Below, piece after piece: positions 9,306 through 24,904 of a stretch of DNA of 29,226 bases. The stretch is from assembly GCA_030592825.1 (NCBI GenBank), contig JAUVIG010000001.1, positions 1 through 29,226 of the forward strand, given 5' to 3'. The position numbers and the translations under genes were made by a program. The notes under the pieces were generated by a model that saw nothing but the letters and a program-made list of their open reading frames with translations, was not told the origin of the DNA and ran no database searches. This DNA comes from Chlorobiota bacterium (GTDB lineage Bacteria > Bacteroidota > Bacteroidia > Bacteroidales > JAADGE01). The number at the start of each line of letters is the position of its first letter. The stretch's first letter is position 1.

Positions 9306-9341
9306 AACTAAATATTTAGTTGTATAACTAATATTTTAGTT
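9306..9341. promoter_or_regulatory. Tandem BlaI/MecI-type operators
   Basis: Perfect palindrome AACTAAATATTTAGTT (9306-9321) and near-copy AACTAATATTTTAGTT (9326-9341). ACTA-N6-TAGT spacing matches MecI/BlaI boxes. Abuts the TATCTTTG -7 box at 9343-9350. Confidence 0.8.
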
Positions 9342-9366
9342 GTATCTTTGTCCGAAAGATTTTATA

Positions 9367-9750
9367 ATGAAAGAACTCACAAAATCGGAAGAACAAATTA
9401 TGCAGATTCTTTGGAAAATCAATGAAGGCTTTGTAAAAGATATTATTGAATATTTTCCTGATCCTAAACCTGCTTATAATACAGTTTCTACAATCATCAG
9501 GATTTTAGAAAATAAAAAGTTTATAGATCATAAAGCCTACGGCAGAACGTATCAATATTTTCCTGTTATCAGCAAACAAGATTATACCACAAAGTTCATG
9601 AAAAAGTTCATGAAAAATTATTTCAGCGGTTCTTTCCGACAAATGCTGTCTTTTTTCTCGTCAGAAGAAGAATTGTCAATTAATGAATTAGAAAAATTAA
9701 AAAAAGAAATGGATTTAATAATCCAAAAGAAAAAACAAAATAAATTATAA
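9367..9750 (+). CDS. BlaI/MecI/CopY-family repressor
   Basis: LTKSEEQIMQILW, PAYNTVSTIIRILENKKFI, YFSGSFRQMLSFF. ATG 9367 is preferred over TTG 9340, which lies inside the operator/promoter. Confidence 0.93.
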   Translation: MKELTKSEEQIMQILWKINEGFVKDIIEYFPDPKPAYNTVSTIIRILENKKFIDHKAYGRTYQYFPVISKQDYTTKFMKKFMKNYFSGSFRQMLSFFSSEEELSINELEKLKKEMDLIIQKKKQNKL

Positions 9751-9754
9751 AACT

Positions 9755-10972
9755 ATGGTAAGTTTTTTCAATTATACAATCGAAGTTATTATTTCAATGT
9801 TTCTGTTTTTTACGGTCTGGAAAATATTTTTGCAAAAAGAGACCTTTCACTGCTTGCATAGACTCTTCTTACTAACATCTCTGATTATATCTTTTATAAT
9901 ACCTTCTTTTGAATTTATTTCTCCTGTATCAAATCAACTCGGTTTTTCTGATTATATAACAAACACAATTCAAATTGAAGAAATAATAATCAATCCCTAT
10001 AACGACTCAATTTACCTCATTGATTGGTTAAGCTTATTCTATATTTCAGTTGTATTATTCCTGTTAATCAGGCTTCTGTCCCAACTACGATCTATCAAGA
10101 AATTCGCAAAAAAATGTGAAATTCAAATTTATCAAGAAAAGAAAATCTATATAACAGACAAAGATATTTCTCCGTTCTCGTTTATGAATTATATATTTTT
10201 TAATAAAAATGATATAAAAGGAATAAATTTCAATCGTATATTTCAACATGAACTTATTCATGTAAATCAAAAACATTCTATTGATATTATTTTACTTGAA
10301 TTAGTAATTATTTTTCAGTGGTTTAACCCTATGATATATATCTATCGAAAACATTTGAAAACGCTCCACGAATATTTATCGGACGAAAAAGTTATCCTGC
10401 AGGGCTTTCAAGCCGATGAATATAAAATGCTCTTGATTAAGCAACAAATTGGATTTCAATTTGGATTTGCAAATTATTTTAATAAATCTTTAACATTAAA
10501 ACGAATAAATATGATTAACAAACTTAAATCACATAAAACAGCAAAATTAAAATTATTATTTGCTGTACCTATTCTCGCTTTTACGTTTTTACTATTTTCA
10601 TTTTCAGGAAATAAAAATGAAACATACAATTATAGTGTTTCGGCAACCCAAGATACAATATATGACCAAGCAGATGAAATGCCTGAATTTCCGGGAGGTA
10701 AATTGGCACTCAGAAAATTTTTAGCAGAAAATGTCAAATATCCGGAAATTGCCAAAAAAAACAAAGTAGAAGGTACAGTTTTCATCAAATTTGTTGTTGA
10801 TAAAACCGGGAAAGTAGGCGATGCAGTAATACAAAAAGGCATTTCTGAAAGTATAGATAAAGAAGCTTTGAGAGTTGTTAAAATGCTGCCTCCTTTTAAA
10901 AAACCCGGATATAACAACGGGAAACCTGTTGACGTTTATTTTTCAATCCCAATCACTTTCAGTTTAAAATAA
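9755..10972 (+). CDS. M56 (BlaR1-like) metallopeptidase with C-terminal TonB domain
   Basis: SPFSFMNYIF, HELIHVNQKH (HExxH), WFNP, HEYLSD; C-terminal MPEFPGG...YPEIA...VEGTVFIKFVVDKTG...DKEALRVV. Confidence 0.92.
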   Translation: MVSFFNYTIEVIISMFLFFTVWKIFLQKETFHCLHRLFLLTSLIISFIIPSFEFISPVSNQLGFSDYITNTIQIEEIIINPYNDSIYLIDWLSLFYISVVLFLLIRLLSQLRSIKKFAKKCEIQIYQEKKIYITDKDISPFSFMNYIFFNKNDIKGINFNRIFQHELIHVNQKHSIDIILLELVIIFQWFNPMIYIYRKHLKTLHEYLSDEKVILQGFQADEYKMLLIKQQIGFQFGFANYFNKSLTLKRINMINKLKSHKTAKLKLLFAVPILAFTFLLFSFSGNKNETYNYSVSATQDTIYDQADEMPEFPGGKLALRKFLAENVKYPEIAKKNKVEGTVFIKFVVDKTGKVGDAVIQKGISESIDKEALRVVKMLPPFKKPGYNNGKPVDVYFSIPITFSLK

Positions 10973-11027: not shown

Positions 11028-11144
11028 CTAATTATTAATCATCATAGGCATTAACAGCATTAAAACATCTTCATTTTCTGAATCCGACTCAAAAGGTAAC
11101 ATTATTCCTGCTTTTGAAGGTTCAGACATTTCAAAAACAACTTC
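11028..11144 (-). pseudogene. dnaN: Orphan copy of the last 39 codons (including stop) of dnaN; attR-like direct repeat
   Basis: Encodes EVVFEMSEPSKAGIMLPFESDSENEDVLMLLMPMMINN*; 112/117 nt identical to 23771-23887. Confidence 0.95.
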
Positions 11145-11262
11145 AACTTATACGAAACTTCACACTTGGCTTGACACTGCCTTGGCAACAATAAACATAA
11201 TTTTGTTTTTTATAAATGATTGAATATCTTTGGTTTTCAGTGTAAAACCAAAACCATCACCG

Positions 11263-14200
11263 ATGAACCTTTTAAAGAAGCTCAAAAACCTCGCTTTACA
11301 AAGATTTATACCTTTAACTTTGTTTTTTTTTCTTTTAAGTTCCGTTCTTTTTGGTCAAAACGAAAAAATGAACAAAAAAACGAAGAAAGCTGATGATTTA
11401 CTTCAAAAGGCATTGGTTTTAAGTGATTCCGCAAAGTATGACAGTGCCATAGTTTTACTGACAGAAGCATCTGCTTTCTACAAAAAGAAAAAGAATAAAG
11501 AAAAGTATATTCATTGTAAAAATGAAATTATTAAACAATCAAGGTATATTAAATTTAATGATGAATTATTAAAACCTGCAAAGGAGAATATTGTTTATTC
11601 AAAGAAAATTTTAGGCAATGAGCATTATCTGACAGGTAATTGTTATAGTTTGTTGGGAAATATTTTTGCAGATATTAATAAAATTGACAGTGCATTGCAT
11701 TATTACAGCAAAGCAAAAGAAATTTGGGAATTGGATAAAAAGAAAAATAAAATGAGAATAGCCGATGCAAATTTAAATATCGGAAATATGCTTAAAAACA
11801 AAGGTGAGTTTGATAAAGCTGCTTCACTAATACACAAGGCATTAAAAACCAAAATTGATTCTCTCGGAAATAATCATCCCGATATTGCTGCTATATATAA
11901 TAGTTTAGGAGTTATGTATTATTATACAGGAGATATTGATTCATGCGCATTCTATTTAATGAAAATGCTGGAGATCAGAAAAAATTATTATGGAGAATCT
12001 CATCCTATAGTAGCAAATGCATATAATAATGTAGGAGTTGCATATAAAGTAAAAGGAGATTATGATAAGGCCCTAACATATTACAAAAAAGCTTTAGATA
12101 TCAGAAAAAAAAGTCTTGGTTTATTACATCCTAATTTGGCATTAAGTTACAGCAATATTGGTGTAATTTATGCAAATCTGGGAAAATATAAACTTGCAAA
12201 CGAATATTACGAAAAGGCATTAAAAATCAGGTTAGAACTTTTTGGTGAAGACCACATAGATGTAGCAGCTTGTTATACTAATATGGGTATTAATTGTATG
12301 GACTGCGGTGAAGGGGGAAGTGCCTTATTATATATACAAAAGGCATTCAAAATAATAATTGAAACATACGGTCAGGATAATCCGAATACATCAAGTGCCT
12401 ATAACAATATGGGGGCTGCTTATGTTTATGGTCTCGGTGATTTAGATAAAGCTTTAAAGTATTTTATAAGAGGCTTGGAACTAAGGCTTAAAACTGATGC
12501 AAATAATCCATTAATTGCAAGCAGCTATAATAATATTGGTGCTGTATATAAAAACAGGGGTGATTACGAACTTGCATTATCTTATTATAAAAACGGACTT
12601 AAAGTTATAAAGGATCAGTTTGGAGAACAACATATTGAGGCAGCTTCTGCATACAATAATATGGGTGAGGCATATTTATTACTAAACGATTTTGAGACAT
12701 CCCGAAAATATTTTGAAAAAGCACTTAATATCAGGTTAGAACTCTTTGGTGATAACTATCCCGGCTTAGCTGAAACATATCTTAATATTGGTACGGTTTA
12801 CAGCAAACTTGGTGAGCTTGAAAAGGAAAAAGAGTGTTATGAAAAAGGACTTGAAATTTGTTTGAAGAACTTTGATGAGAGAAATATCTCTGCTGCAAGA
12901 TTATATCTAAACCTTGCAATGAACGCGGCAGACATGAAAAATTATCATGAGGCAATTTCATTAACAGAAAAAGCTCTCAGCGTTCAAAAAGAAATATATC
13001 CGGAAGATCATCCCGGTATTGCAAAATCTTTGTCAAATTTGGGATTAATATATTATTTATCAGGGAATTATGATTTATCTGCTAATTATTATTTAAAATC
13101 TTTAGATGCAAACTATATCGGGAAACTAACTGACAATTTGGATTATTATTTAATATTGGATGAAATTCAATATCTCGAAACATTATCTGAACTGGCCGAT
13201 TTGTACTTTACGAAATATAAGCTTAAAAATGATATTCCGGCATTAAAAGAAGCGATTTCATATTATCAAAAAGCTTCCGATATGGTTTCTTTTCTGGCAT
13301 CAGGCTATTCTGTTGAAGCATCAAAGATGAATCTGCTTAAAAAGGCTGCCGGTATTTTTCAAAAGGCTTTAATTTCAACTGAAATCCTTTATCGAAATAA
13401 TAAGAATTATAAAAATACAGCAACGGCATTTGGTTTTTCAGAACAAAATAAGTCTTCTGTTTTATATGAATCAATAATAAGAAGTAATATTAAAACTGAA
13501 AACACATCGGACAGTTTGTGGGTTTTGCAACTGAATTTATCAGGAAAGATAAATTATTTAAAAACCAAGTTTTTGGCAGATGAGAATGATTCCCTCAATT
13601 TGCAAGCTAATAATGAGCATGATGCAGAACTCTCAAAAGCAATTATTGATTACCAAAGTGTTACAGAAGATATTCAATCAAGAAAACAGAATGCTCAGTA
13701 TGTTGTTTTCTATAAACAAACTTTGATTGATTCTATTCAAGCTAATCTAAAGCCCGTCGAATTAATGCTTGAATATTTTATTTCAGATTCAGCAGTTTAT
13801 TGTTTTGTTATCGGAAAACAAATCTTGGAGTTGGAAAAAGTAAATATTGAACCGGAATTTAAGGGTAGATTATTTGACTATATAACAAGCATAAAAAAAC
13901 ATCGCTTTTCTCAATTTCAGGAAAACAGTTACTACCTTTATAATAAATTGATTAAACCTGTTGAAAAATATTTTACAGATAAATCAAAACTAATTATTAT
14001 TCCTGACGACTATTTATTATACCTTCCTTTTAGTTCACTTATTTCACAAAAGCAAAATGATAATCAGATTATTAATTTTTCAAAATTGGATTACCTGATT
14101 AAGGATTACGAAATCGTATATCAATATTCGGCAAATTTATGGCTTGAAAATTTTCAAACAGGACAAATTAACAATACAACAAAAGGTTTTTTCGGTATTG

Positions 14201-14934
14201 CACCCTTTTCTACAAACGAAATTGTCAGCGAAATTGACAGTACAAATTTAAGTTTTTTAGATAAGGCACTTCCGGAAAGTGTATTGCGAAATATCACAAA
14301 CAGCAAGAATGAATATAAATCATTACCATATTCCGGTAAAGAAATAAATAGTATTGCAAAATTATTTGAGTTACAAGGTATTAGTACAAAAAATCTTATT
14401 GACACTGATGCATCTGAAAAAAATCTAAAGACCTTTGCTAAAGATTTTAAATACCTTCATATTGCTACTCACGGTATTATAAATAATATTCATCCTGAAT
14501 TAAGCGGATTAGTATTTATTAATGATAATAATGTGAGTAAAGATAAGGAACCGGACAATAAAACCAAACAAAGTTGGAAATTAGAACAAAATACGGATGG
14601 GATTTTGTATGCAAAAGAAATATTTGATTTGGACTTAAATGCTGAATTAGTAGTTTTAAGTGCCTGCGAAACCGGTATTGGTAAACTTGAAAAAGGAGAA
14701 GGTGTTATTTCACTGACAAGGGGATTTTTATACAACCGGGTACCAAATGTTGTTTTCTCTTTATGGAAAATCAACGATAAAAACGCCTGCGATTTAATGA
14801 CCGACTTTTACAGTAATATTTTGCAGGGCAAATCCTATGCTTCTGCACTTAGACACGCAAAGCTTAATATGATCAGTAATAAAGAAACTGCCTATCCGGG
14901 AAATTGGGCGGCTTTTTCTTTGATTGGGAAATAA
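11263..14934 (+). CDS. TPR-repeat CHAT-domain (caspase/HetF-like) protease, probably exported
   Basis: Signal-like FIPLTLFFFLLSSVLFG; roughly a dozen about-42-aa TPRs (HPDIAAIYNSLG-type); intact dyad motifs LHIATHG and VLSACETG; terminal PGNWAAFSLIG. ATG 11263 is preferred over TTG 11230 because TATCTTTG lies at about 11225-11232. Confidence 0.93.
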   Translation: MNLLKKLKNLALQRFIPLTLFFFLLSSVLFGQNEKMNKKTKKADDLLQKALVLSDSAKYDSAIVLLTEASAFYKKKKNKEKYIHCKNEIIKQSRYIKFNDELLKPAKENIVYSKKILGNEHYLTGNCYSLLGNIFADINKIDSALHYYSKAKEIWELDKKKNKMRIADANLNIGNMLKNKGEFDKAASLIHKALKTKIDSLGNNHPDIAAIYNSLGVMYYYTGDIDSCAFYLMKMLEIRKNYYGESHPIVANAYNNVGVAYKVKGDYDKALTYYKKALDIRKKSLGLLHPNLALSYSNIGVIYANLGKYKLANEYYEKALKIRLELFGEDHIDVAACYTNMGINCMDCGEGGSALLYIQKAFKIIIETYGQDNPNTSSAYNNMGAAYVYGLGDLDKALKYFIRGLELRLKTDANNPLIASSYNNIGAVYKNRGDYELALSYYKNGLKVIKDQFGEQHIEAASAYNNMGEAYLLLNDFETSRKYFEKALNIRLELFGDNYPGLAETYLNIGTVYSKLGELEKEKECYEKGLEICLKNFDERNISAARLYLNLAMNAADMKNYHEAISLTEKALSVQKEIYPEDHPGIAKSLSNLGLIYYLSGNYDLSANYYLKSLDANYIGKLTDNLDYYLILDEIQYLETLSELADLYFTKYKLKNDIPALKEAISYYQKASDMVSFLASGYSVEASKMNLLKKAAGIFQKALISTEILYRNNKNYKNTATAFGFSEQNKSSVLYESIIRSNIKTENTSDSLWVLQLNLSGKINYLKTKFLADENDSLNLQANNEHDAELSKAIIDYQSVTEDIQSRKQNAQYVVFYKQTLIDSIQANLKPVELMLEYFISDSAVYCFVIGKQILELEKVNIEPEFKGRLFDYITSIKKHRFSQFQENSYYLYNKLIKPVEKYFTDKSKLIIIPDDYLLYLPFSSLISQKQNDNQIINFSKLDYLIKDYEIVYQYSANLWLENFQTGQINNTTKGFFGIAPFSTNEIVSEIDSTNLSFLDKALPESVLRNITNSKNEYKSLPYSGKEINSIAKLFELQGISTKNLIDTDASEKNLKTFAKDFKYLHIATHGIINNIHPELSGLVFINDNNVSKDKEPDNKTKQSWKLEQNTDGILYAKEIFDLDLNAELVVLSACETGIGKLEKGEGVISLTRGFLYNRVPNVVFSLWKINDKNACDLMTDFYSNILQGKSYASALRHAKLNMISNKETAYPGNWAAFSLIGK

Positions 14935-14941
14935 ACCGATA

Positions 14942-15120
14942 AAATTATTTAATGAATATCCGTATACTCCCCCATAGTTCATTAAACAGATTGGAAATCA
15001 ATTTGTTTACCCCAAACCCTAAAGGGAGCAAATTGATTTTCTTCACACCCTTTAGGGATTGGGGTAAATGAAGAAAATCAATCATTAAAGTGGAGTATAC
15101 GGATATTCATTAAATAATTT
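14942..15120. repeat. 179-bp nested inverted-repeat element (MITE- or REPIN-like)
   Basis: Perfect 29-bp terminal IR (14942-14970/15092-15120) enclosing a 21-bp IR with one mismatch (15006-15026/15048-15068) and shorter IRs. Confidence 0.85.
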
Positions 15121-15189
15121 ATTGCCAATACAAAATATTTGTCTATATTTGCACTTAATTCCGAAATTATCCAACTAATTAGTAACAGT

Positions 15190-16350
15190 ATGCAAAATAT
15201 AGACAGAATTTTGAGTATTGAACTTCCAAAAAATCAATCAGCATTTTTATGGGGGCCAAGGAAAACCGGAAAAACAACCTTATTAAAAACCAAATTTCCG
15301 CAAAGCATTGTTTATGATTTTCTCCAAACTGATTTATTTTTTAATTTTTTAAAAAAGCCTTCACTATTACGTGAACAATTGCTTGCAAAAAACGGGAAGC
15401 TATTGAATTCCCCTATAATTCTTGATGAAGTACAGAAAGTTCCTCAAGTTCTTGACGAGGTTCATTGGTTGATTGAAAATAAGGGAATGCGCTTTATATT
15501 ATGCGGTTCAAGTGCAAGAAAACTCAAAAGAGGACGAGCAAATATGCTTGGAGGGCGTGCGTGGCGGTATGAAATGTTTCCGTTAGTAACTGCAGAACTC
15601 GAAAATTGGGATTTATTAACAATCCTAAACAGAGGCTTAATACCGGCACATTACCAACAAAAAAATTACAAAAAATCATTACGTTCATATACACAGGATT
15701 ATATGAAAGAAGAAGTATTTGATGAGGGCTTAACACGTAATATTCCGGCATTTTCAAAATTTTTTGATTCTGTTGGTTATTCTCACAGTGAACTAATAAA
15801 TTATTCAAATATCTCTCGAGATTGCGGGATAAATTCAAAAACCGTGAGAGAGTATTACCAAATACTTGTTGATACATTAATGGGGCGTTTTGTTGAACCT
15901 TTCAAAAAGCAACAGAACAGACAGGTAATAACCAAGGCACCTAAATTCTATCTGTTTGATGTTGGTGTCGCAGGAGCAATCTCAAAACGTGTTTTAGAAG
16001 AAGAAAAGGGTGAATTGTTTGGAAAAGCATTTGAACACTTTATATTAATGGAAATTACTGCCTATAATTCATATAAAGAAATTGACTTTGAAATAAACTT
16101 TTGGCGAACAAAATCCGGTTTGGAAGTAGATTTTATTCTTGGCAACGGTGAAGTGGCAATTGAAGTTAAAGGAACAAACCGTGTTGATAATAAAAGTTTA
16201 AAACCCATTGAAACATTCATTGAAGAATATTCACCTGAAAAAGCTTTTGTTGTATGCAATGAAACAGAAGAAAGACTTAAAGGGAAGGTTCGCATAATAC
16301 CTTACAGGAAATTCCTGTCTTCGTTATGGGAAGGTGAGATAATTAAATAA
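15190..16350 (+). CDS. AAA_14-type ATPase with DUF4143 / PD-(D/E)xK-like C-terminus
   Basis: Walker A GPRKTGKT, Walker B IILDEVQ, CGSSA, PKFYLFDVG, EVDFI...AIEVK. ATG 15190 is preferred because TATATTTG lies at 15144-15151. Confidence 0.9.
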   Translation: MQNIDRILSIELPKNQSAFLWGPRKTGKTTLLKTKFPQSIVYDFLQTDLFFNFLKKPSLLREQLLAKNGKLLNSPIILDEVQKVPQVLDEVHWLIENKGMRFILCGSSARKLKRGRANMLGGRAWRYEMFPLVTAELENWDLLTILNRGLIPAHYQQKNYKKSLRSYTQDYMKEEVFDEGLTRNIPAFSKFFDSVGYSHSELINYSNISRDCGINSKTVREYYQILVDTLMGRFVEPFKKQQNRQVITKAPKFYLFDVGVAGAISKRVLEEEKGELFGKAFEHFILMEITAYNSYKEIDFEINFWRTKSGLEVDFILGNGEVAIEVKGTNRVDNKSLKPIETFIEEYSPEKAFVVCNETEERLKGKVRIIPYRKFLSSLWEGEIIK

Positions 16351-16391
16351 ATTTGTTCATGCAAAAATACAAATAAAAAAAAGTAAACTTC

Positions 16392-16421
16392 TTTGTAACG
16401 ATTTTTAATTTCCGGACATAT
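16392..16421 (+). promoter_or_regulatory. Putative ECF sigma promoter TTTGTAAC-N16-ACATAT
   Basis: Same motif and spacing as upstream of the sigma gene (23671-23700). Confidence 0.6.
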
Positions 16422-16488
16422 CAGTATAAATTTGCATGATTTCCTACTTGCAAAACTTTTTATTTTTATAACTCAAAAATTAAAGAAA

Positions 16489-17253
16489 ATGAAATCAAAA
16501 GGCATTCTGTTTAAAAACATAAGCAAAATAAGTTATCTGTTTTTTATAATAATTGTTATATTTTCATCGTGTAAAAAGGATGAAAATATTGAGCCTGTGC
16601 AAATTTCTGATTTAAGCGGATTTTGGATTATTTCAGAAACTATTACAGGTAATTGCCATGGAAGTGTTGAAACTGAACAAAAAACAGAAATATTTTCAAT
16701 TTATCAGCAAGACAGCAAGTTGACAATAACAATTTATCCTAACGGTGATATTCTTAAAGGAACTGTTGAAGGGGATAAAATCTCATGGGAGGGCACAATT
16801 CCTACCGTCAGCGGTAAAACGGATATTGATTTTACAGGTACTGCAACAAACAACGGAAATCAAGCTGCAGGAACTGCAAGTTGGGAATGGAACTCGGATA
16901 CATACAATTGCTCCGGCACTACAAAAATATCAGGCGAAAAGGTGATTCAAGAAACAGCCGATTTTTCAGGTGAATGGGAAGGGACTTGGAAAAGTGAGGA
17001 AAATTCGGCTGACGGAACATTTTCAGCAAATGTTACTCAAAATGACACAATATTAAGCGGGACTATAGATGTTCCCTTTTTAGATATATCAAATGCAAGT
17101 TTAAAAGGATTTGTGTCAGGTAATGTTGTTTTTTTTGGTGACATAGAAGAAAAAATAAAATTTGTCGGCATTATGAATGAGAATACAGGTGAAGGCACAT
17201 ACAGCTATATGTCTTTAAGCGATGAGGGTAGTTGGACAGGCACAAAACAATAA
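16489..17253 (+). CDS. Surface lipoprotein with two tandem beta-rich domains
   Basis: Lipobox IFSS-C followed by KKDE; internal repeat DLSGFWI.../DFSGEWE...; ATG 16489 is preferred. Confidence 0.8.
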   Translation: MKSKGILFKNISKISYLFFIIIVIFSSCKKDENIEPVQISDLSGFWIISETITGNCHGSVETEQKTEIFSIYQQDSKLTITIYPNGDILKGTVEGDKISWEGTIPTVSGKTDIDFTGTATNNGNQAAGTASWEWNSDTYNCSGTTKISGEKVIQETADFSGEWEGTWKSEENSADGTFSANVTQNDTILSGTIDVPFLDISNASLKGFVSGNVVFFGDIEEKIKFVGIMNENTGEGTYSYMSLSDEGSWTGTKQ

Positions 17254-17281
17254 ACTTAAATATAAATAAAAAATTTAAATT

Positions 17282-17875
17282 ATGAATCTATTTCTAAAAA
17301 TTCCGGCAAATAATAAAACCAAACAAATGACCATGAAAACTTTATCTGTTCTGTTTATTTCAATGATATTTATCCACCTTGTAAACGGACAAGCAAAGGA
17401 GATTCCAAACAAGAAAAACAATGTTTTTATTCTATTAAACAATCATCTTGAAAAGAGAGGAAGTGAGAATTATTATACTTCCAATCCCGACTTTTCAGTT
17501 GGGTATGAGAGAGACCTTTTTGGTTTTGGTAAAAATCGGTTTTATGCCGGTATAAGAACAGGTGCTTATAAGGAATATGTTCTCACCGGTTATGGCTGGA
17601 GTCATCCGGAAAAAACCAGATTTTTCATAGGCCTTTCTCCCTCATACGTGCTTAATATTTCTAAAAAATTCAGGTTACAAGTAAATCTGCTTTATGATGT
17701 GTTACTACCTGATGATTATGATGAGATTTGGTCTTATTGGGCAGTTGAACCGTCATTTCAGTATTTCGTCAAGAATTTCTATGTCGGTATTTCTGCTGCA
17801 ACAGGTGTTTTCCTTTTCTTCGATCCAAAAGCCTATATGGATAAAGCAGGATTAAAGCTTGGATACCAGTTCTGA
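17282..17875 (+). CDS. Secreted protein, probable small outer-membrane beta-barrel
   Basis: Signal peptide from M at 17327 or 17333 (MKTLSVLFISMIFIHLVNG); alternating aromatic strands; C-terminal LKLGYQF. Confidence 0.65.
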   Translation: MNLFLKIPANNKTKQMTMKTLSVLFISMIFIHLVNGQAKEIPNKKNNVFILLNNHLEKRGSENYYTSNPDFSVGYERDLFGFGKNRFYAGIRTGAYKEYVLTGYGWSHPEKTRFFIGLSPSYVLNISKKFRLQVNLLYDVLLPDDYDEIWSYWAVEPSFQYFVKNFYVGISAATGVFLFFDPKAYMDKAGLKLGYQF

Positions 17876-17969
17876 TAAATACAAATATCAATAAGGACTA
17901 AGTTTATTCCTGAATATTTTAATGGTACAAAACAATAAATTTTAAAGGTAATTTTAAAAAAATTTAATT

Positions 17970-19187
17970 GTGAACCAATTTCTAAAAAATATATTTACTA
18001 TCATTTTTGTAGTCGTTTTTATAATTTCTTGCAAAAAAGATGAACCGGAAATTCACGAAGATCCTATTGTTTATGATGAAACAGGAATGTTGGGATTGGC
18101 GGATTCACCTTGGCCTTGCGACGGACATGATTCACGAAGGACATCACAAAGTCCGTATAACGGACCAAGCAACGTAAATGCAATAATGATTTATGATTCA
18201 TCACCCGGATTTCATACATCTGATGCAACATCACCGGCAATTGATGCTTCCGGAAATTTATTCTGCATGGCATGGACACGTGTTTTAAAGTTTTCAAGTA
18301 ATCATGATTTTGAATGGGAAAACGGAACAGGTTTATATTTGAGGAATATTCCGCCCATAGCAAAAGACGGAACAATTTATATAGGCGGATTTTATCAGCA
18401 ATCTGTTACAAATTTCACGACCGGATTAATTATAGCTTTAGATCAATCAAATAACACTAAATGGGAGTTTAAAACACCGGACGAATATGACGGCGGAATT
18501 TGGGGTGCTTTAGCTATAGGCTCAAACGGAACAATATATACAGTTGATGCATCAGACGGTTTATTTGCAATAAATAAACAAGGTAAAAAACTTTGGTCTT
18601 ATCAACCTGACAGATTAACTTGTTCATCACCGGCAATTGCCCCCGACGGAACTATTTATGTTATTGATTCTGATGACAATCTGTACGCAATAAAACCCGA
18701 AGGAGAGCTTTTATGGAAATACTCTGCAGGTAAAGATATTAATTATGATCCTGTTACAGGAATTGACGGCACAGTTTATATAGGAACTGAAAATTCATTA
18801 CTGGCAGTCGACAAAATCGGTGACAAATTATGGGAATATAATTTACCGGATGCTGCAATAAATCGGCCATCTTTGGCAAATGACGGTACTATTATTATTG
18901 CCTGTGCCGATAATAATATTTATGCAATAAACTCTGACGGAAGTCTTAAGTGGAATTACAACACCAACGGAAATGTTACAAGCCCTACAACTATTGATGC
19001 TGCAGGCAGTATATATTTCGGTACAAAGCCGGATTCCGCAAAAATCATATCTATATCAAACCAAGGCCAACTTTTATGGGAGTATCCCTTGTGGTTAGGC
19101 TATGTCCAACCGGTTATCGGAGCTGACGGAACATTGTACGTTGGTACAGCAGAAGGTAAAATTTATGCACTAACTGAAACCAAATAA
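17970..19187 (+). CDS. Lipoprotein with PQQ-binding-like beta-propeller repeats
   Basis: GTG start; lipobox IIS-C followed by KKDE; SPWPCDGHDSRRT; repeated SSPAIAPDGTIY...LYAI...G..LWKY. Confidence 0.85.
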   Translation: MNQFLKNIFTIIFVVVFIISCKKDEPEIHEDPIVYDETGMLGLADSPWPCDGHDSRRTSQSPYNGPSNVNAIMIYDSSPGFHTSDATSPAIDASGNLFCMAWTRVLKFSSNHDFEWENGTGLYLRNIPPIAKDGTIYIGGFYQQSVTNFTTGLIIALDQSNNTKWEFKTPDEYDGGIWGALAIGSNGTIYTVDASDGLFAINKQGKKLWSYQPDRLTCSSPAIAPDGTIYVIDSDDNLYAIKPEGELLWKYSAGKDINYDPVTGIDGTVYIGTENSLLAVDKIGDKLWEYNLPDAAINRPSLANDGTIIIACADNNIYAINSDGSLKWNYNTNGNVTSPTTIDAAGSIYFGTKPDSAKIISISNQGQLLWEYPLWLGYVQPVIGADGTLYVGTAEGKIYALTETK

Positions 19188-19220
19188 AAAAATAATTCAA
19201 TAACTTTTAAAAAAAAAATA

Positions 19221-19901
19221 ATGACTAAAAAAATACATATCAGAATTATCAAGCTCACTTTATTAACATTAATCCCTTTTTCAATCTTTTCGCAGGATTT
19301 AAAGGATAAAAAAATCGAATTTTCAATAACCGGAGGTGCATTATTACCCGGGAAAGTACAAGGTTCTTATGAATCGGACTATAATCCTGATTCTACAGTT
19401 ACTATTACTAATAAAGTATCGCCTTTAATAAAATTTGTTACAGATTTTAACATATTACCATATTTATCAGTCGGTATAAATGTAAATTTTGCAAAATTCA
19501 ACATCAATGATATTTTATACAAAGATGAATCTATGAAGGAAGGTAACGAGGTTAGTTTAGGTTACTGGGACGACAGAGAACATATAATTCCTTTGGATGA
19601 TATTAAGATGCTTGAAACAAATGTATCTGTTAAAGGACGTTTTATTTTAACTGATAAGATTGTGATTAAACCATGTGTGTATCTGGGTTACAGAAAAACC
19701 TTTTCGAGCAGCCCGGATGCAAGGGAAAAGGGCTTGGTCTTAAATTATAATATTGAATATCAGTATTATTTCAAAACAAACCATTTTTTAACAGCAGATC
19801 TCGGTATTTTTTCTCAACCTTACGGAGGTGTGACTCATGTGGCACATGTTCGCTCATTTGGGGTGCCTTATATTACAATAGGTTATGGATTTGCAATTTA
19901 A
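19221..19901 (+). CDS. Secreted protein, probable outer-membrane beta-barrel
   Basis: Signal peptide ending FSIFS|Q; strand-like pattern; C-terminal YITIGYGFAI. Confidence 0.6.
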   Translation: MTKKIHIRIIKLTLLTLIPFSIFSQDLKDKKIEFSITGGALLPGKVQGSYESDYNPDSTVTITNKVSPLIKFVTDFNILPYLSVGINVNFAKFNINDILYKDESMKEGNEVSLGYWDDREHIIPLDDIKMLETNVSVKGRFILTDKIVIKPCVYLGYRKTFSSSPDAREKGLVLNYNIEYQYYFKTNHFLTADLGIFSQPYGGVTHVAHVRSFGVPYITIGYGFAI

Positions 19902-20043
19902 ACAAAAATCTAAATACTTCATTTTCCTTTTTATGATTGTATTTGTGTTTTTAGGAATCTTAATAAACTGTGCATTGAGATCATTGAGAATTGACGGTGA
20001 TTTAATTCATACTTTTGATTATTTGTAAGCTAAAAATAAACTT

Positions 20044-22035
20044 ATGAAATACATGGCAAACATAAATATAAGAAATTCTTTTTTGCTAATCCTGTTCTTT
20101 TCTGTAACAATATTTTTATTGCCTAAAAACGTTATTGCCGATGATTCTATAAGAATTGAGTTAGATGAAATATTGTTTTTTGAATCCGGAAATGATGTTC
20201 CCGATAAAAAAGACAGAAAATATATTAATCATTTTAAACCCGAAACACAATATATTAATGTTGAATTAAACATTAAAAACCTGAATTATAAAAAAGAAGA
20301 TAAAGAATATAAAATAACATTTATTTGGAACTATTTAAACGGAGACGAATTTGGAAGATCAGAGGCGACATTTAATGTGAAATCAGAATGGTCAACTGCT
20401 TATATAAACCGGGGTTGGGGATTTACCGATAAAGGAAATTGGCGACTTGGCAGATACACGGCTAAAATACTTATTAACGACAGCCTCTTAGCAGAAAAAG
20501 ACTTTTTTATTACCAAATTTGATGAGGATTTTATTTCACTTCCGGAAGATAATAAAGTCATTGAAAACCTACAGAATATTTCTTCAGATATCAAGTACAA
20601 AATCCTGCATCAGTATAAAATAGTACCGCAACCATATTTTAATTATTTTTATGATATTAATTTCAGTGAAGACGGGAAAGATATCGCATATTCTATTGCT
20701 AATTATGAACATCAAAATGCCACTTCATATTCGGGTTCTTCAACATCAAGAGATATGCTCTTATTCAAAAATAACAAACAAATAATTCCGAATTATTTTA
20801 TGATACGAGCCGATTTTGATAAAAATCTTAAAAACTTAACTTATTTCGGATTAAAACTTAAAACTTCTGATATAAAGGATGCTGAAGGAAACGGTTATTA
20901 TAACGGATTGCAATTGTATAACAATACATACTATATCCCGTTAGATATAAGTCCCGACAATAAAAAACATATATATATACTGAATACGATGCCCATATTG
21001 AAATCTTCATTCACATGGGACAATGCCTACGAATTTTTAATGATAAACAATAAAAAAACACAAGCAGAACACTTAAAAACTGCAAAATCAATAAGAATTA
21101 CTAAATCTACCCAATCAATATTCTCTCGAACAAATTCAATAGTATTTATTAAAAATTCGGATAATTCCTATAATGCATTATATACGGCAAAATACAAGTT
21201 TGACAATCAGGCTCATTATGCATTATTTAACGAAGCAAAAAGAATTTCACCACAATTTGACGGCTACATCAGTATACCCTATTTATCTCCTGATGAAAAA
21301 AATGTTGCATACATTGTAAAGGATAAAAAAGAGTGGTTTGTAATGATTAATGATAAAAAAATAACAAAAGGATACAAAGAAATTAAAGCGTCAAAAGCAT
21401 TAAACAACGTAAAAAACGAAATAGTTTTTTGTAAGCAAGGGAAAAATGTTATTTACCAAGCTAAAATAAAAGGCGATTGGTATGTAATGAAAGGCGATGA
21501 AATAATATCCGACGGTTTTTCAAAAATTGAATTAATTACAGTGAATCCTGCCGGAGACAAGATTGCTTATATTGCAAAATCCGGAAAGACTTGGAGTGCA
21601 TATATTAATAAAAGAAGAATTTCAGAAGAATTTGATCGTTTTGGGAAAGAAATCAAATTCAGCCCCGACGGTAATAATATTGCTTATGCAGCAGGAACTG
21701 AAGACAGTATGTTTGTAATGATAAACAATTGTAAAGTATCATCAAATTTTAAAATTCAATATCAAAACTCATTATACATGGGAAAACAACCGCTTGCAAT
21801 CACTAATCTTACATTTAACAAAACAGGTGATAAGCTTGCATATATAGTTATTTTTGAGTATTCCGGAGAAGAATATGTGGACAAAATGAAACATTCTTAT
21901 ATCATGATTAATGATGCTCGGATTTCACCCAAAATGTACAATGCATCAATACACTCAAATAAACCGGGTGAATTATTTTATGCAGGAATAGATATTTCTG
22001 ATTTAATTCTTCATCATGTTAAGATTGAATTTTAA
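20044..22035 (+). CDS. Secreted protein: N-terminal Ig-like domain plus TolB/PD40-like beta-propeller
   Basis: Signal peptide; ...GNWRLGRYTAKILINDSLLAEKDF; blades FSEDGKDIAY, ISPDNKKHIY, LSPDEKNVAY, VNPAGDKIAY, FSPDGNNIAY, FNKTGDKLAY. Confidence 0.65.
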   Translation: MKYMANINIRNSFLLILFFSVTIFLLPKNVIADDSIRIELDEILFFESGNDVPDKKDRKYINHFKPETQYINVELNIKNLNYKKEDKEYKITFIWNYLNGDEFGRSEATFNVKSEWSTAYINRGWGFTDKGNWRLGRYTAKILINDSLLAEKDFFITKFDEDFISLPEDNKVIENLQNISSDIKYKILHQYKIVPQPYFNYFYDINFSEDGKDIAYSIANYEHQNATSYSGSSTSRDMLLFKNNKQIIPNYFMIRADFDKNLKNLTYFGLKLKTSDIKDAEGNGYYNGLQLYNNTYYIPLDISPDNKKHIYILNTMPILKSSFTWDNAYEFLMINNKKTQAEHLKTAKSIRITKSTQSIFSRTNSIVFIKNSDNSYNALYTAKYKFDNQAHYALFNEAKRISPQFDGYISIPYLSPDEKNVAYIVKDKKEWFVMINDKKITKGYKEIKASKALNNVKNEIVFCKQGKNVIYQAKIKGDWYVMKGDEIISDGFSKIELITVNPAGDKIAYIAKSGKTWSAYINKRRISEEFDRFGKEIKFSPDGNNIAYAAGTEDSMFVMINNCKVSSNFKIQYQNSLYMGKQPLAITNLTFNKTGDKLAYIVIFEYSGEEYVDKMKHSYIMINDARISPKMYNASIHSNKPGELFYAGIDISDLILHHVKIEF

Positions 22036-22044
22036 GAAACGACT

Positions 22045-22800
22045 TTAGTTCCTGATTATAAATTTGCCCGTAAATACTGATTCTTCTGTAGTTTCCAATT
22101 GCCAGTAATAAAGACCGGGTTTAAGTTTTTGTTCAAAAAGGTAAGTAGTATCAATTTGCTTTTCGAATATGATATTTGCTTTATTATCAAAAACTATGAA
22201 ATTAAGTGAATCAAAATCTGCTGATTCCCATCTGATTTTGATAATCTCATTCGGTTTAAATTTATAATTAAATTTCGGAGACAAAACTTCAAGATTTCCG
22301 GCTCTTACAGAATTTTCTATAAAATTTTCAAATTCAGGCATAATTTTGTATGCTTCTGCTAATAGATTTGTGTTTTTTTCATATTCATCATTAAATTCTT
22401 TGTTTATGATAGTCGAATCTTCTTTTTTGAATGTAATTGTATCAATATTTTCGGATTTTAATGATACAACATTTTTTCCAATTTTATTTTTATCTGATAA
22501 TAAAATGCCTAACCATGTTATTGAAACAAGAACTAATAATGTAGCCGCAATTTTTAGTAAAAAAGAAAAGTTGATTACAGGCTTCTTGCTTGTTTTTGGA
22601 ATTGCAAATTTATTTTGATTGATTTCTTTCGGTAACTCATTCCTGATAATACCGATTATTGCTTTTCTTTTTTCCAGTGTATCCATACATTCATCGCAAA
22701 ACAAAAGATGTTCTTCCAGTCCGTTTTCTTCCTCTTCTGTTAATTGATTAAGTAAGTACTTGTCAATTAAATCGTTATTTATAATATCATTATGATTCAT
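22045..22800 (-). CDS. Zinc-binding (zf-HC2-like) transmembrane anti-sigma factor
   Basis: IDKYLLNQL...EEHLLFCDEC (HxxxCxxC), a single TM helix, and a C-terminal Ig-like domain (LKPGLYYWQL); 18 bp downstream of the sigma gene. Confidence 0.85.
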   Translation of the reverse strand: MNHNDIINNDLIDKYLLNQLTEEEENGLEEHLLFCDECMDTLEKRKAIIGIIRNELPKEINQNKFAIPKTSKKPVINFSFLLKIAATLLVLVSITWLGILLSDKNKIGKNVVSLKSENIDTITFKKEDSTIINKEFNDEYEKNTNLLAEAYKIMPEFENFIENSVRAGNLEVLSPKFNYKFKPNEIIKIRWESADFDSLNFIVFDNKANIIFEKQIDTTYLFEQKLKPGLYYWQLETTEESVFTGKFIIRN

Positions 22801-22818
22801 ATCTTAACAATCAGCATT

Positions 22819-23655
22819 TTAAATGTAACCGTGCAGTCGTGCCGGTTTTTCAAGTTTTGCAAGTGCTCTGTGTTTGATAACTCTGCAATTTACTTCTGTA
22901 ATATTTAATTTTTCAGCAATATTTTTAAGTTTTTCCTCTTTAAAGAATACTTCAAAAAGTATATTTTTTTCTGACTCGTTTAAATCTTTAAATAAGTTAG
23001 ATATAAATTTTTCTTTATCTGATTCCGGTATATACTGATCATAATTATCAAAATAATCCGGTTCAAAATCATTAGTATTAAAAAAGAGATTCTTTTTCTT
23101 TTCTCTGTAATATTCAAAGAGTTTTAAGTTAATTATTTTAAAAATATATGATTTTAATAATCCGGAGTCCTTAAAAAAAAGTTCATTTTTTTGTAATTTG
23201 TTTAGAAAAACAACTTGCGCTTCCTGATAAAATTGTTCCTGCAGTTCAATATCTGAAAAACCTTTTTTTATAAGCCAGAATTTAATTCTTCTTTTTAATA
23301 ATATATCAAAAGTCAACCATACTTTTTTATCATTTCTATATAATAAATCAAAATAGTTTTGAAACAGCCTTGGAATTTTTTCATTTGCTTTCGATATTAT
23401 AAAATCTTTATATTCTGAGAAAGTACTTATTGTTTCCTGTCTGTAAGTTATTTTTTGTATTATATCCGAAAATAAATCATCAAATAATACTTTTCGGCTG
23501 CAAATTTCATCCTTTCCGGCTATCCAATCAAGTTCAATATATTTTTTAGAGAAATACCGGGAAACAACTATCTTCAAGTTATTCTTCACTATAGAAATCG
23601 CTTTCTTTTCACCTAAAGTTAGATTATTAATCAGCTCTTTAAATTTATCATGCAT
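22819..23655 (-). CDS. ECF-type sigma factor with an N-terminal extra sigma2-like domain
   Basis: sigma2 FYQEAQVVFLNKL...LKSYIFKIIN; sigma4 LNESEKNIL...LKNIAEKLNITEVNCRVIKHRALAKL; about 95 extra N-terminal residues. Confidence 0.85.
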   Translation of the reverse strand: MHDKFKELINNLTLGEKKAISIVKNNLKIVVSRYFSKKYIELDWIAGKDEICSRKVLFDDLFSDIIQKITYRQETISTFSEYKDFIISKANEKIPRLFQNYFDLLYRNDKKVWLTFDILLKRRIKFWLIKKGFSDIELQEQFYQEAQVVFLNKLQKNELFFKDSGLLKSYIFKIINLKLFEYYREKKKNLFFNTNDFEPDYFDNYDQYIPESDKEKFISNLFKDLNESEKNILFEVFFKEEKLKNIAEKLNITEVNCRVIKHRALAKLEKPARLHGYI

Positions 23656-23670
23656 CCCTTTATATTTATG

Positions 23671-23700
23671 AGATGTAAAAAATCACTCAAATGTTACAAA
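23671..23700 (-). promoter_or_regulatory. Putative autoregulatory ECF promoter TTTGTAAC-N16-ACATCT
   Basis: Ends 15 nt before the sigma ATG; matches 16392-16421. Confidence 0.65.
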
Positions 23701-23770: not shown

Positions 23771-24904
23771 TTAATTATTAATCATCATCGGCATTAACAG
23801 CATTAAAACATCTTCATTTTCTGAGTCCGACTCAAAAGGTAACATAATTCCTGCTTTTGAAGGATCAGACATTTCAAAAACAACTTCTTCCGAACCGATA
23901 TTTTGAAGTATCTCCGATAAGAAAACAGATTTAAAACCAATTTCCATATCATCGCCTTCGTACTGACATACTAAACGTTCATGTGCAGAAATTGAAAAAT
24001 CAATATCTTGTGCCGAAACTATTATTTCATTTGCCGTAAAATGTAATTTTATCAAATTGCTTGCCTGATTTGAGAAAACTGATACACGTTTCACAGTATT
24101 GTAAAGATCAGACCTGTTAATAATTAATTTATTAGGGTTTTCAGTAGGTATAACTGACGCATAGTTAGGGTATTTCCCTTCTGTTAATCGGCATATTAAT
24201 TTAAAACCGAGAAACGTGAATACAGCATTTTTTTCATCAAACTCAATAGATACTACCTCATCAACCAATCCGACAAGTAAACCTTTTAATAAATTAGCAG
24301 GTTTCTTCGGCAATATAAAAGATGAATCCTTATCGGCATTTCCGTCGGTTCTTTTGTATCTTACAAGCTTATGCGAATCAGATGCAACGAATGTAATATC
24401 TTCCTTTGTCATTGAAAAAAATATCCCGTTCATAACAGGCCTTAACTCATCATTTGCAGTTGCAAAAACGGATTTGTTAATACCGCTGTCCAAAAGTTTT
24501 GCATCCAATTTGAATTTCACGGATGTATCTTCGGACAATTCCGGAGCTTGAGGATATTCGTCAGCAGGAGAACCGACTACACTGAACTTTCCGTTTTCAG
24601 AAAGTATATTTACAGATAAAGTTTCAGAATCAATCTCAAAAGTCAGAGGTTGTTCCGGAAACTCTTTTAAAATATCTAACAAACGTTTTGCTTCCAGAGC
24701 AATTTTTCCTGAACCTTCACTATTCTCAATGCTTAGCTTTGTAATTAATGTAGATTCTAAATCTGATGCAGTTATGGTTAATTCTCCTGTATCAAGATCG
24801 AAAAGGAAACTGTCGAGTATCGGAATTGTAGATTTTCCGCTGATTGCTTTACTTACACTTAGCATATGTGAAAGTAATTCTGAACTGGAAACAATAAATT
24901 TCAT
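23771..24904 (-). CDS. dnaN: DNA polymerase III beta sliding clamp
   Basis: PILDSFLF, ASDLE, ELRPVMNG, VASDSHKL, GKYPNY, IGFKSVFL, LLMPMM. Confidence 0.97.
   Translation of the reverse strand: MKFIVSSSELLSHMLSVSKAISGKSTIPILDSFLFDLDTGELTITASDLESTLITKLSIENSEGSGKIALEAKRLLDILKEFPEQPLTFEIDSETLSVNILSENGKFSVVGSPADEYPQAPELSEDTSVKFKLDAKLLDSGINKSVFATANDELRPVMNGIFFSMTKEDITFVASDSHKLVRYKRTDGNADKDSSFILPKKPANLLKGLLVGLVDEVVSIEFDEKNAVFTFLGFKLICRLTEGKYPNYASVIPTENPNKLIINRSDLYNTVKRVSVFSNQASNLIKLHFTANEIIVSAQDIDFSISAHERLVCQYEGDDMEIGFKSVFLSEILQNIGSEEVVFEMSDPSKAGIMLPFESDSENEDVLMLLMPMMINN

Follow-up and report, generated by a model that had tools for sequence, protein, structure and literature searches.

Extracytoplasmic function (ECF) sigma factor pathways are a major bacterial route for signalling across the envelope. 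In classical regulated intramembrane proteolysis, the anti-sigma factor RseA is cut by DegS and then by RseP, and RsiW is cut by PrsW and then by RasP. CHAT proteases have been linked to the control of sigma factors in a few described systems. The DdvA/DdvS system of Myxococcus xanthus comprises a transmembrane zinc-finger anti-sigma factor fused to a periplasmic TPR-CHAT region, along with an ECF sigma factor (PMC11506125, PDB 8rot). The CHAT domain of DdvA is proposed to cut its own linker as a site-1 protease, followed by RseP; self-cleavage was not demonstrated because the signal is unknown (PMC11506125). Another TPR-CHAT protein, Csx29, cleaves the sigma regulator Csx30 (PMC10028731), and in the ECF54 group of Actinobacteria, genes for CHAT, subtilase and carboxypeptidase proteins lie in the neighbourhood (PMC8999054). 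The Bacteroidota have the most ECF sigma factors per genome (PMC7826278). Here we describe a locus of this phylum in which a TPR-CHAT protease, a zinc-finger anti-sigma factor and a sigma factor of ECF-like type are encoded by three separate genes. It occupies positions 11263-23655 of an AT-rich (~30% G+C) stretch of 29,226 nt (the window, by which we mean the whole stretch analysed) from a Bacteroidales genome of 655 contigs that is 89% complete.

The plus strand of this block encodes, in order, the TPR-CHAT protein, an AAA_14/DUF4143 ATPase, a lipoprotein, a barrel-like protein, a PQQ lipoprotein, a second barrel-like protein and a PD40-like protein (as judged from the list of open reading frames (ORFs) and Pfam). 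Converging on these from the minus strand are the genes for the 278-residue sigma factor and then the 251-residue zf-HC2 anti-sigma factor. The conserved core of the locus is the CHAT, sigma and anti-sigma trio, which persists in related loci while the output genes vary from locus to locus; the envelope cargo is exchangeable. The module and its gene linkage are solid. We think it somewhat probable that the trio forms a three-component signalling module across the inner membrane that is activated by proteolysis. The literature on CHAT proteins with ECF sigma factors or anti-sigma factors in Bacteroidetes yielded no account of the trio (most subscription journals lay outside the search), and in Bacteroidota it is apparently undescribed.

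Protease, anti-sigma factor and sigma factor

The three core genes are:

11263..14934, plus strand: exported TPR-CHAT protease, 1223-1234 residues (Pfam; the longest ORF starts at 11230)
22045..22800, minus strand: zf-HC2 anti-sigma factor, 251 residues (Pfam, alignment, model and fold search)
22819..23655, minus strand: ECF-like sigma factor, 278 residues, with an N-terminal extension (Pfam region 4; TIGR02937)

The CHAT domain (PF12770) spans residues 903-1234 of the 1234-residue ORF and scores 191.7 bits (cut-off 24; E=2.6e-56). It is preceded by a predicted signal peptide, ~13 TPR repeats, which match many TPR families of Pfam, and a helical linker. The original prediction, made from the sequence alone, was of a catalytically intact protease with a signal-like N-terminus, and both parts are upheld at the sequence level. 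The putative catalytic residues H1070 ('HIATHG') and C1135 ('LSACETG'), numbered from the Met at 11263, are intact, and the His-Cys dyad shows no variation across two alignments, one with 5 relatives and one with 13, the 13 being linked to anti-sigma genes. The N-terminus has basic residues and a 16-residue hydrophobic stretch followed by a G-Q junction, and the same kind of signal-peptide N-terminus, often ending before Gln, is present in ~20 CHAT relatives. Each linked CHAT protein begins with a predicted signal peptide, which points to export.

Searching the CHAT domain by sequence against solved structures returned nothing, and the full-length protein matched only TPR proteins. As these searches were uninformative, a fold search was required. 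An AlphaFold model of the last 624 residues (pLDDT 78) gave Csx29 (2e-13), DdvA (1e-9) and separase (1e-7) as the top Foldseek matches, and the modelled fold is of the separase/craspase TPR-CHAT type. In PADLOC, the CHAT protein matched only generic TPR, and the sigma factor, the anti-sigma factor and the envelope proteins had no defence-system match. Thus, a defence role such as that of DdvA is not supported here.

The anti-sigma factor passes the zf-HC2 profile (PF13490) with 22.9 bits against a cut-off of 22.2 (relatives score 23-27 bits), and its motif H31-x3-C35-x2-C38, predicted to bind zinc, is invariant in 10 anti-sigma sequences. Modelling suggests a cytoplasmic, helical zf-HC2 domain, a transmembrane helix (residues 79-102), a linker (~107-141), two conserved helices and an Ig-like sandwich (171-249). 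The linker appears disordered and is poorly conserved (alignment and model), and the C-terminal domain matched only generic Ig/FnIII sandwiches in the fold search. Weak profile matches to type IX secretion tails were also recorded. Within the otherwise variable linker, most of 32 CHAT-linked anti-sigma factors have a D-S/T dipeptide ~20 residues past the membrane helix (residues ~118-123 in the window protein). The dipeptide may be a motif for recognition or for cleavage, or it may have arisen from the alignment. The genome encodes one match to Peptidase_M50, the site-2 protease family (161 bits, contig C112; here and below, labels in C, G and L denote contigs, genomes and related loci).

The anti-sigma gene begins 19 nt after the end of the sigma gene. 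The proposal that a sigma/anti-sigma operon sits at the far end of the block stands, with a zf-HC2 protein with one transmembrane helix at 22045-22800 and the sigma factor at 22819-23655. The assignment as an ECF sigma factor is marginal by profile. The protein passes TIGR02937, although barely (43.6 bits against a cut-off of 42.9, residues 130-270; relatives score 43.4-60.6), whereas Pfam identified region 4 only, with no match to region 2. At 278 residues it exceeds the ~170-200 residues typical of ECF sigma factors by virtue of an N-terminal extension of ~100-130 residues. This extension is kept in the close sigma family. A set of 5.8 billion proteins yielded only 11 close relatives, and with two exceptions these are 277-278 residues long. 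Distant sigma factors of 184-199 residues (L072:9554-10132, L103:8823-9383 and L152:9917-10471) lack it and have the same anti-sigma and CHAT partners. Thus, the extension is not essential to the trio.

In the window, 7.1 kb separate the CHAT gene from the anti-sigma gene. To count how often the two occur together, we used an alignment of the anti-sigma factor as the probe in samples of 401 genomes of the order and 400 of the phylum. Among the 20 top-scoring anti-sigma relatives of the order sample, 12 adjoin a CHAT gene, and these include all 9 at E<=4e-25. In the phylum sample this is so at 14 of 15 places, some of them in Ignavibacteria, and here the CHAT gene is mostly convergent on the anti-sigma gene, with gaps of a few to ~400 nt. 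As a control, we examined 333 kb at 20 loci that encode zf-HC2 anti-sigma factors of other kinds, from the same sample, and none had a CHAT gene. The co-occurrence analysis suggested with the original prediction thus came out in its favour. The genomes counted span many genera and families, and relatives among them are not fully independent. About 3% of the genomes in the order sample, and likewise in the phylum sample, carry the trio, and CHAT and anti-sigma are adjacent yet separate genes in ~30 genomes other than this one. A functional link between the CHAT protein and the anti-sigma factor is supported by this gene linkage.

Individual loci differ in arrangement. L041 (sigma factor 46% identical) has the whole module with the gene order changed, and in L043/L044 (61%) a 75%-identical CHAT orthologue is divergent from the sigma gene, 75 nt apart. 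In L042 (77%), the gene for the 663-residue PD40-like protein converges on the anti-sigma gene, after which the contig ends. Genomes G423, G424 and G426 each encode a distant sigma factor (28-34% identical) and an anti-sigma factor beside the best CHAT match of the genome; these are three of the genomes in which homologues of the 663-residue protein stand alone. At L072:5673-8613 (G424), two genes with the ABC-3C conflict-system domains CTD12 and DUF2326 lie between CHAT and anti-sigma. Upstream of the L037 sigma gene, an FGE-sulfatase protein takes the place of CHAT; it lacks a caspase-like domain, and we rejected it as a simple protease swap.

The genes could be neighbours only through shared travel on an island, with no functional relation. 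Such an origin would account for a 12.6-kb insertion bracketed by a direct repeat and for at least one unrelated passenger, the ATPase gene (both described below). It fits poorly with the adjacency of CHAT and anti-sigma across gene orders, orientations, sites and classes (12/20 and 14/15, versus 0/20), and with a predicted complex of the two proteins that passed against its controls. We consider shared travel highly implausible, and the co-occurrence counts bring it close to refuted.

Promoters, predicted docking and proposed proteolytic activation

Three promoter-like sites bear on the direction of the signal:

16392..16419, plus strand: candidate sigma-dependent promoter TTTGTAAC-N16-ACAT before the envelope operon, beginning 97 nt upstream of the lipoprotein start
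23673..23700, minus strand: candidate autoregulatory promoter TTTGTAAC-N16-ACAT, beginning 43 nt upstream of the sigma start codon
11202..11232, plus strand: promoter-like site of housekeeping type, TTTG-N19-TATCTTTG, located 30 nt before the CHAT start codon (pattern search)

The motif TGTAAC-N16-ACAT occurs exactly twice in the window, versus 0.07 expected. In 9 of 11 related loci it precedes the sigma start by 34-44 nt, with AAC in its putative -35 element. Seven output operons are also preceded by it. It stands ahead of the lipoprotein homologue in both L041 and G009, and ahead of the output operons of L070-L072, L103 and L105. The earlier suggestion that the sigma factor induces the envelope genes gains from this pattern, here and in distant relatives, and we predict that they are its output. 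Around CHAT genes, the motif was absent within 200 nt of 9 of 10 checked. The pattern TTTG-N19-TAnnTTTG, which we take to be the consensus of Bacteroidetes sigma-A promoters, was found 3 times in the window versus 2.7 expected, so that for the site before the CHAT gene the position alone is suggestive. The presence of the TGTAAC motif at the sigma gene and the lipoprotein operon, and its absence at CHAT, would place CHAT upstream, as the input. In G423, a stand-alone homologue of the 663-residue protein (L050, ~4424) is preceded by TGTAACGATTTT...ACAT and the sigma gene is on another contig, which suggests a dispersed regulon in that genome.

CHAT may instead act downstream of or alongside the sigma factor, processing or policing the envelope proteins that it induces, with the anti-sigma factor monitoring CHAT as feedback. 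All partners would share a compartment. In L041, as in the window, CHAT and the envelope operon are on one strand, with CHAT directly ahead of the operon, and in 3 loci CHAT is co-transcribed with the sigma and anti-sigma genes. However, the cargo changes by locus while CHAT, sigma and anti-sigma stay together, and homologues of the 663-residue protein are found with no CHAT nearby. Furthermore, CHAT is mostly convergent with the anti-sigma gene, outside the output operon and without the sigma-dependent motif. We regard a downstream role as improbable.

We predicted the complex of CHAT residues 380-1223 with anti-sigma residues 103-251. The score was 0.63, against 0.00 for the best of 3 controls, and the pair passed a mark that 55 of 80 solved complexes attain, as do 3 of 110 mismatched pairs. 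This check had also been proposed with the original prediction, and its result agrees with it. On the anti-sigma factor, the predicted contacts involve the conserved PEFENF and YYWQLE segments; on CHAT they lie around the invariant W1168, D1172, P1212 and W1215. In both proteins these are the motifs with the strongest conservation. The model indicates that CHAT likely binds the periplasmic part of the anti-sigma factor.

We propose that, at rest, the transmembrane zinc-finger anti-sigma factor would hold the ECF-like sigma factor in the cytoplasm and present to the periplasm a flexible linker of ~40 residues, followed by the small Ig-like domain. The TPR-CHAT protein, apparently made from its own housekeeping-type promoter, would be exported to the periplasm as the sensor, and its CHAT domain would dock on the Ig-like domain. 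A signal received via the TPR repeats may then activate the His-Cys protease, which would cut the periplasmic part of the anti-sigma factor as the site-1 protease. The RseP-like site-2 protease of the genome could follow with a cut in the membrane that frees the sigma factor, which would switch on the TGTAAC-N16-ACAT promoters of its own operon and of the lipoprotein/small barrel/propeller operon. Within this scheme we infer the cleavage of the anti-sigma factor, its site, the signal, activation via the TPR repeats and the role of the site-2 protease. The chances appear evenly balanced that a free periplasmic TPR-CHAT protein is the dedicated sensor and site-1 protease of a cognate anti-sigma factor, engaged via the Ig-like tail, and that this represents a widespread class of ECF signalling in Bacteroidota.

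In the main rival explanation, CHAT binds the anti-sigma factor without cutting it. It might serve as a co-sensor or as a shield of the RseB-RseA kind, or the Ig-like domain could be a securin-like pseudo-substrate that keeps the protease inactive. Securin restrains separase, a structural relative of CHAT, in this manner. A signal would then part CHAT from the anti-sigma factor, another site-1 protease would cut the anti-sigma factor, and the freed CHAT would cut other periplasmic targets. The predicted contact, which joins two folded domains near the conserved SLWK-x-D after the catalytic Cys, is in keeping with this reading, and gene linkage and binding fit equally well with or without cleavage. 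Moreover, DdvA dyad mutants had no signalling defect in the conditions tested (PMC11506125). On the other hand, all linked CHAT proteins examined retain both residues of the dyad, which argues that proteolysis is important in the module. The neighbourhood has no further conserved protease gene, and a disordered linker beside a docking domain resembles a tethered substrate. We view binding without cleavage as unlikely, if still deserving of serious attention.

Several observations weigh against activation by a linked, cleaving CHAT protease. Lacking a nearby CHAT gene are 8 of the 20 anti-sigma relatives in the order sample, which are the more distant ones. Nor was CHAT found within 7.7 kb upstream or 10 kb downstream in L037/L038, where sigma and anti-sigma are 62% and 59% identical to those of the window. 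In 3 loci, CHAT is co-directional with the anti-sigma gene in an operon-like arrangement; being co-transcribed with sigma and anti-sigma there, CHAT does not lie outside the regulon in every case. For the complex prediction no alignments were used and CHAT was truncated by its first 379 residues, and the predicted interface is a folded-domain contact on CHAT that does not place the linker in the active site. At the predicted interface, anti-sigma factors without a CHAT neighbour keep the same residues of the Ig-like domain as those with one; as both groups keep them, this comparison says nothing either way. Finally, autoproteolysis of DdvA is itself still hypothetical, and its dyad mutants showed no phenotype in the conditions tested (PMC11506125).

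Envelope genes and the genomic island

The other features of the block and its boundaries are:

11029..11144, minus strand: left boundary, an extra copy of the last 116 nt of dnaN (direct repeat; tblastn matches dnaN residues 335-377)
14942..15120, no strand assigned: element with a perfect 29-nt inverted repeat at its ends, between the CHAT and ATPase genes and outside the conserved module
15139..16350, plus strand: AAA_14/DUF4143 ATPase, cytoplasmic (Pfam), the sixth gene, between CHAT and the envelope genes
16489..17253, plus strand: lipoprotein with lipobox FSSC, first gene of the output operon (translation; homologues in L041, 55%, and, weakly, L070)
17282..17875, plus strand: small exported barrel-like protein, 182-197 residues, with C-terminal GYQF (translation; likely start 17327)
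17970..19187, plus strand: PQQ/BamB-like beta-propeller lipoprotein (Pfam PQQ_2, 4e-23; L041 homologue 68%)
19221..19901, plus strand: exported barrel-like protein, 226 residues (translation; L041 homologue 74%)
20044..22035, plus strand: exported protein with PD40-like repeats, 663 residues (translation; homologues in L041 and L042)
23772..23887, minus strand: right boundary, where the complete dnaN gene has its 3' end, with the second repeat copy (direct repeat)

Five envelope genes had been proposed to lie between the protease and the sigma/anti-sigma operon. The five exported proteins are confirmed, but a sixth gene, for the cytoplasmic ATPase, had been overlooked. The small barrel-like protein at 17282-17875 belongs to no Pfam family and is absent in G009; the L070 and L106 output operons encode homologues of it. 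Homologues of the 663-residue protein stand alone in five other Bacteroidales metagenome-assembled genomes, one of them with the same promoter motif, and scanning metagenome contigs with an alignment of this protein found no relatives. Given the stand-alone homologues, the cargo is not fixed and the 663-residue protein is a poor anchor for co-occurrence analysis.

The ATPase lacks a signal peptide. Its match in PADLOC is PDC-S01 (E=4e-46), a candidate for a single-gene defence system. Its gene is ~600 nt shorter in the sister genome G009, where a partial deletion indicates decay, and it accompanies none of the related modules examined, being absent from the distant copies. The one match among the fetched loci (L122) is ~6 kb from an anti-sigma gene that has no CHAT neighbour. 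The ATPase gene is an insertion, an unrelated passenger outside the module.

Flanking exactly this 12.6-kb block is a 116-nt direct repeat (11029-11144 and 23772-23887), the copies of which are 97% identical. In G009, which belongs to the same genus, an equivalent insertion is present at 92-95% identity; both of its contigs end within the repeat, and one of them, C99, begins with the same dnaN fragment, beside a BlaR homologue. The sigma factor was detected in 2 of 15 genomes of the genus searched (G000 counted), indicating patchy spread, and in G002 the acyl-CoA dehydrogenase gene directly adjoins dnaN. No integrase or transposase Pfam domain was identified in the nine main ORFs of the block. 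Because of the flanking direct repeat and the absence from related genomes at the same site, 11263-23655 is an integrated genomic island and the label is justified. The description of the circuit as mobile is supported by the repeat and the patchy distribution in the genus, but the conserved core is confined to the trio and does not extend over the full 12 kb.

Genes for a BlaI-like repressor and a BlaR1/TonB_C membrane protein (9340-10972) separate the acyl-CoA dehydrogenase gene from the left dnaN fragment. This pair is absent from that position in G002, thus the site took up more than one insertion. In L042, where the acyl-CoA dehydrogenase is 97% identical, the sigma and anti-sigma genes are on the opposite side of the dehydrogenase gene and the sigma factor is only 77% identical. 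The module seems to have been exchanged or moved within the dehydrogenase/dnaN neighbourhood.

Comparison with known systems

The trio resembles the ECF54 arrangement in that a CHAT gene is conserved near a sigma gene of ECF or ECF-like type and proteolytic control is proposed. ECF54, however, is actinobacterial and lacks an anti-sigma factor, whereas the CHAT link here is specific to one anti-sigma family. With classical regulated intramembrane proteolysis it shares a single-pass anti-sigma factor, an apparently autoregulated sigma factor of ECF or ECF-like type, a site-2 protease in the genome and, as proposed here, a periplasmic first cut that licenses a second cut in the membrane. Unlike DegS and PrsW, the candidate site-1 enzyme is a caspase-like cysteine protease of clan CD with a large TPR array, and it is encoded beside its substrate.

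The best structural match of the window protease is Csx29 (2e-13) of Craspase, in which a regulated TPR-CHAT cut of a sigma-binding protein frees an ECF-type sigma factor. Craspase works in the cytoplasm under RNA guidance and is switched on by target RNA, whereas the window contains no CRISPR gene, its protease has a predicted signal peptide, and the candidate target is a membrane anti-sigma factor. If our reading is correct, the trio would give bacterial caspase relatives a periplasmic, non-defence role beside the cytoplasmic, CRISPR-linked ones, and would be a two-polypeptide form of the DdvA mechanism. As enzyme and substrate would be separate proteins, each could be purified and the two combined, and sigma-factor gating of the caspase type would be directly testable in vitro. 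Dozens of natural variants would be available for comparison, and a predicted docking surface for mutation.

DdvA/DdvS has the same parts: a cytoplasmic zinc-binding anti-sigma domain, one membrane helix, a linker that is long, flexible and periplasmic, TPR repeats and a CHAT domain carrying the His-Cys dyad, together with a partner sigma factor of ECF or ECF-like type. The model of the window CHAT region matches it (E=1e-9) and the proposed mechanism is the same; the sequence of the window CHAT protein places it no nearer to DdvA than to Csx29. Here, however, the TPR-CHAT protein is separate and predicted to be secreted, and the anti-sigma factor ends in an Ig-like domain that is the predicted dock. 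The fusions are reported only in Myxococcota and one Comamonas, whereas the split form occurs in Bacteroidota, and DdvS controls CBASS and CRISPR defence genes, whereas the window sigma factor appears to control envelope proteins. By analogy, the trio looks like a split version of DdvA, the only known anti-sigma factor with its own TPR-CHAT region, and would work like DdvA rather than being a member of that system.

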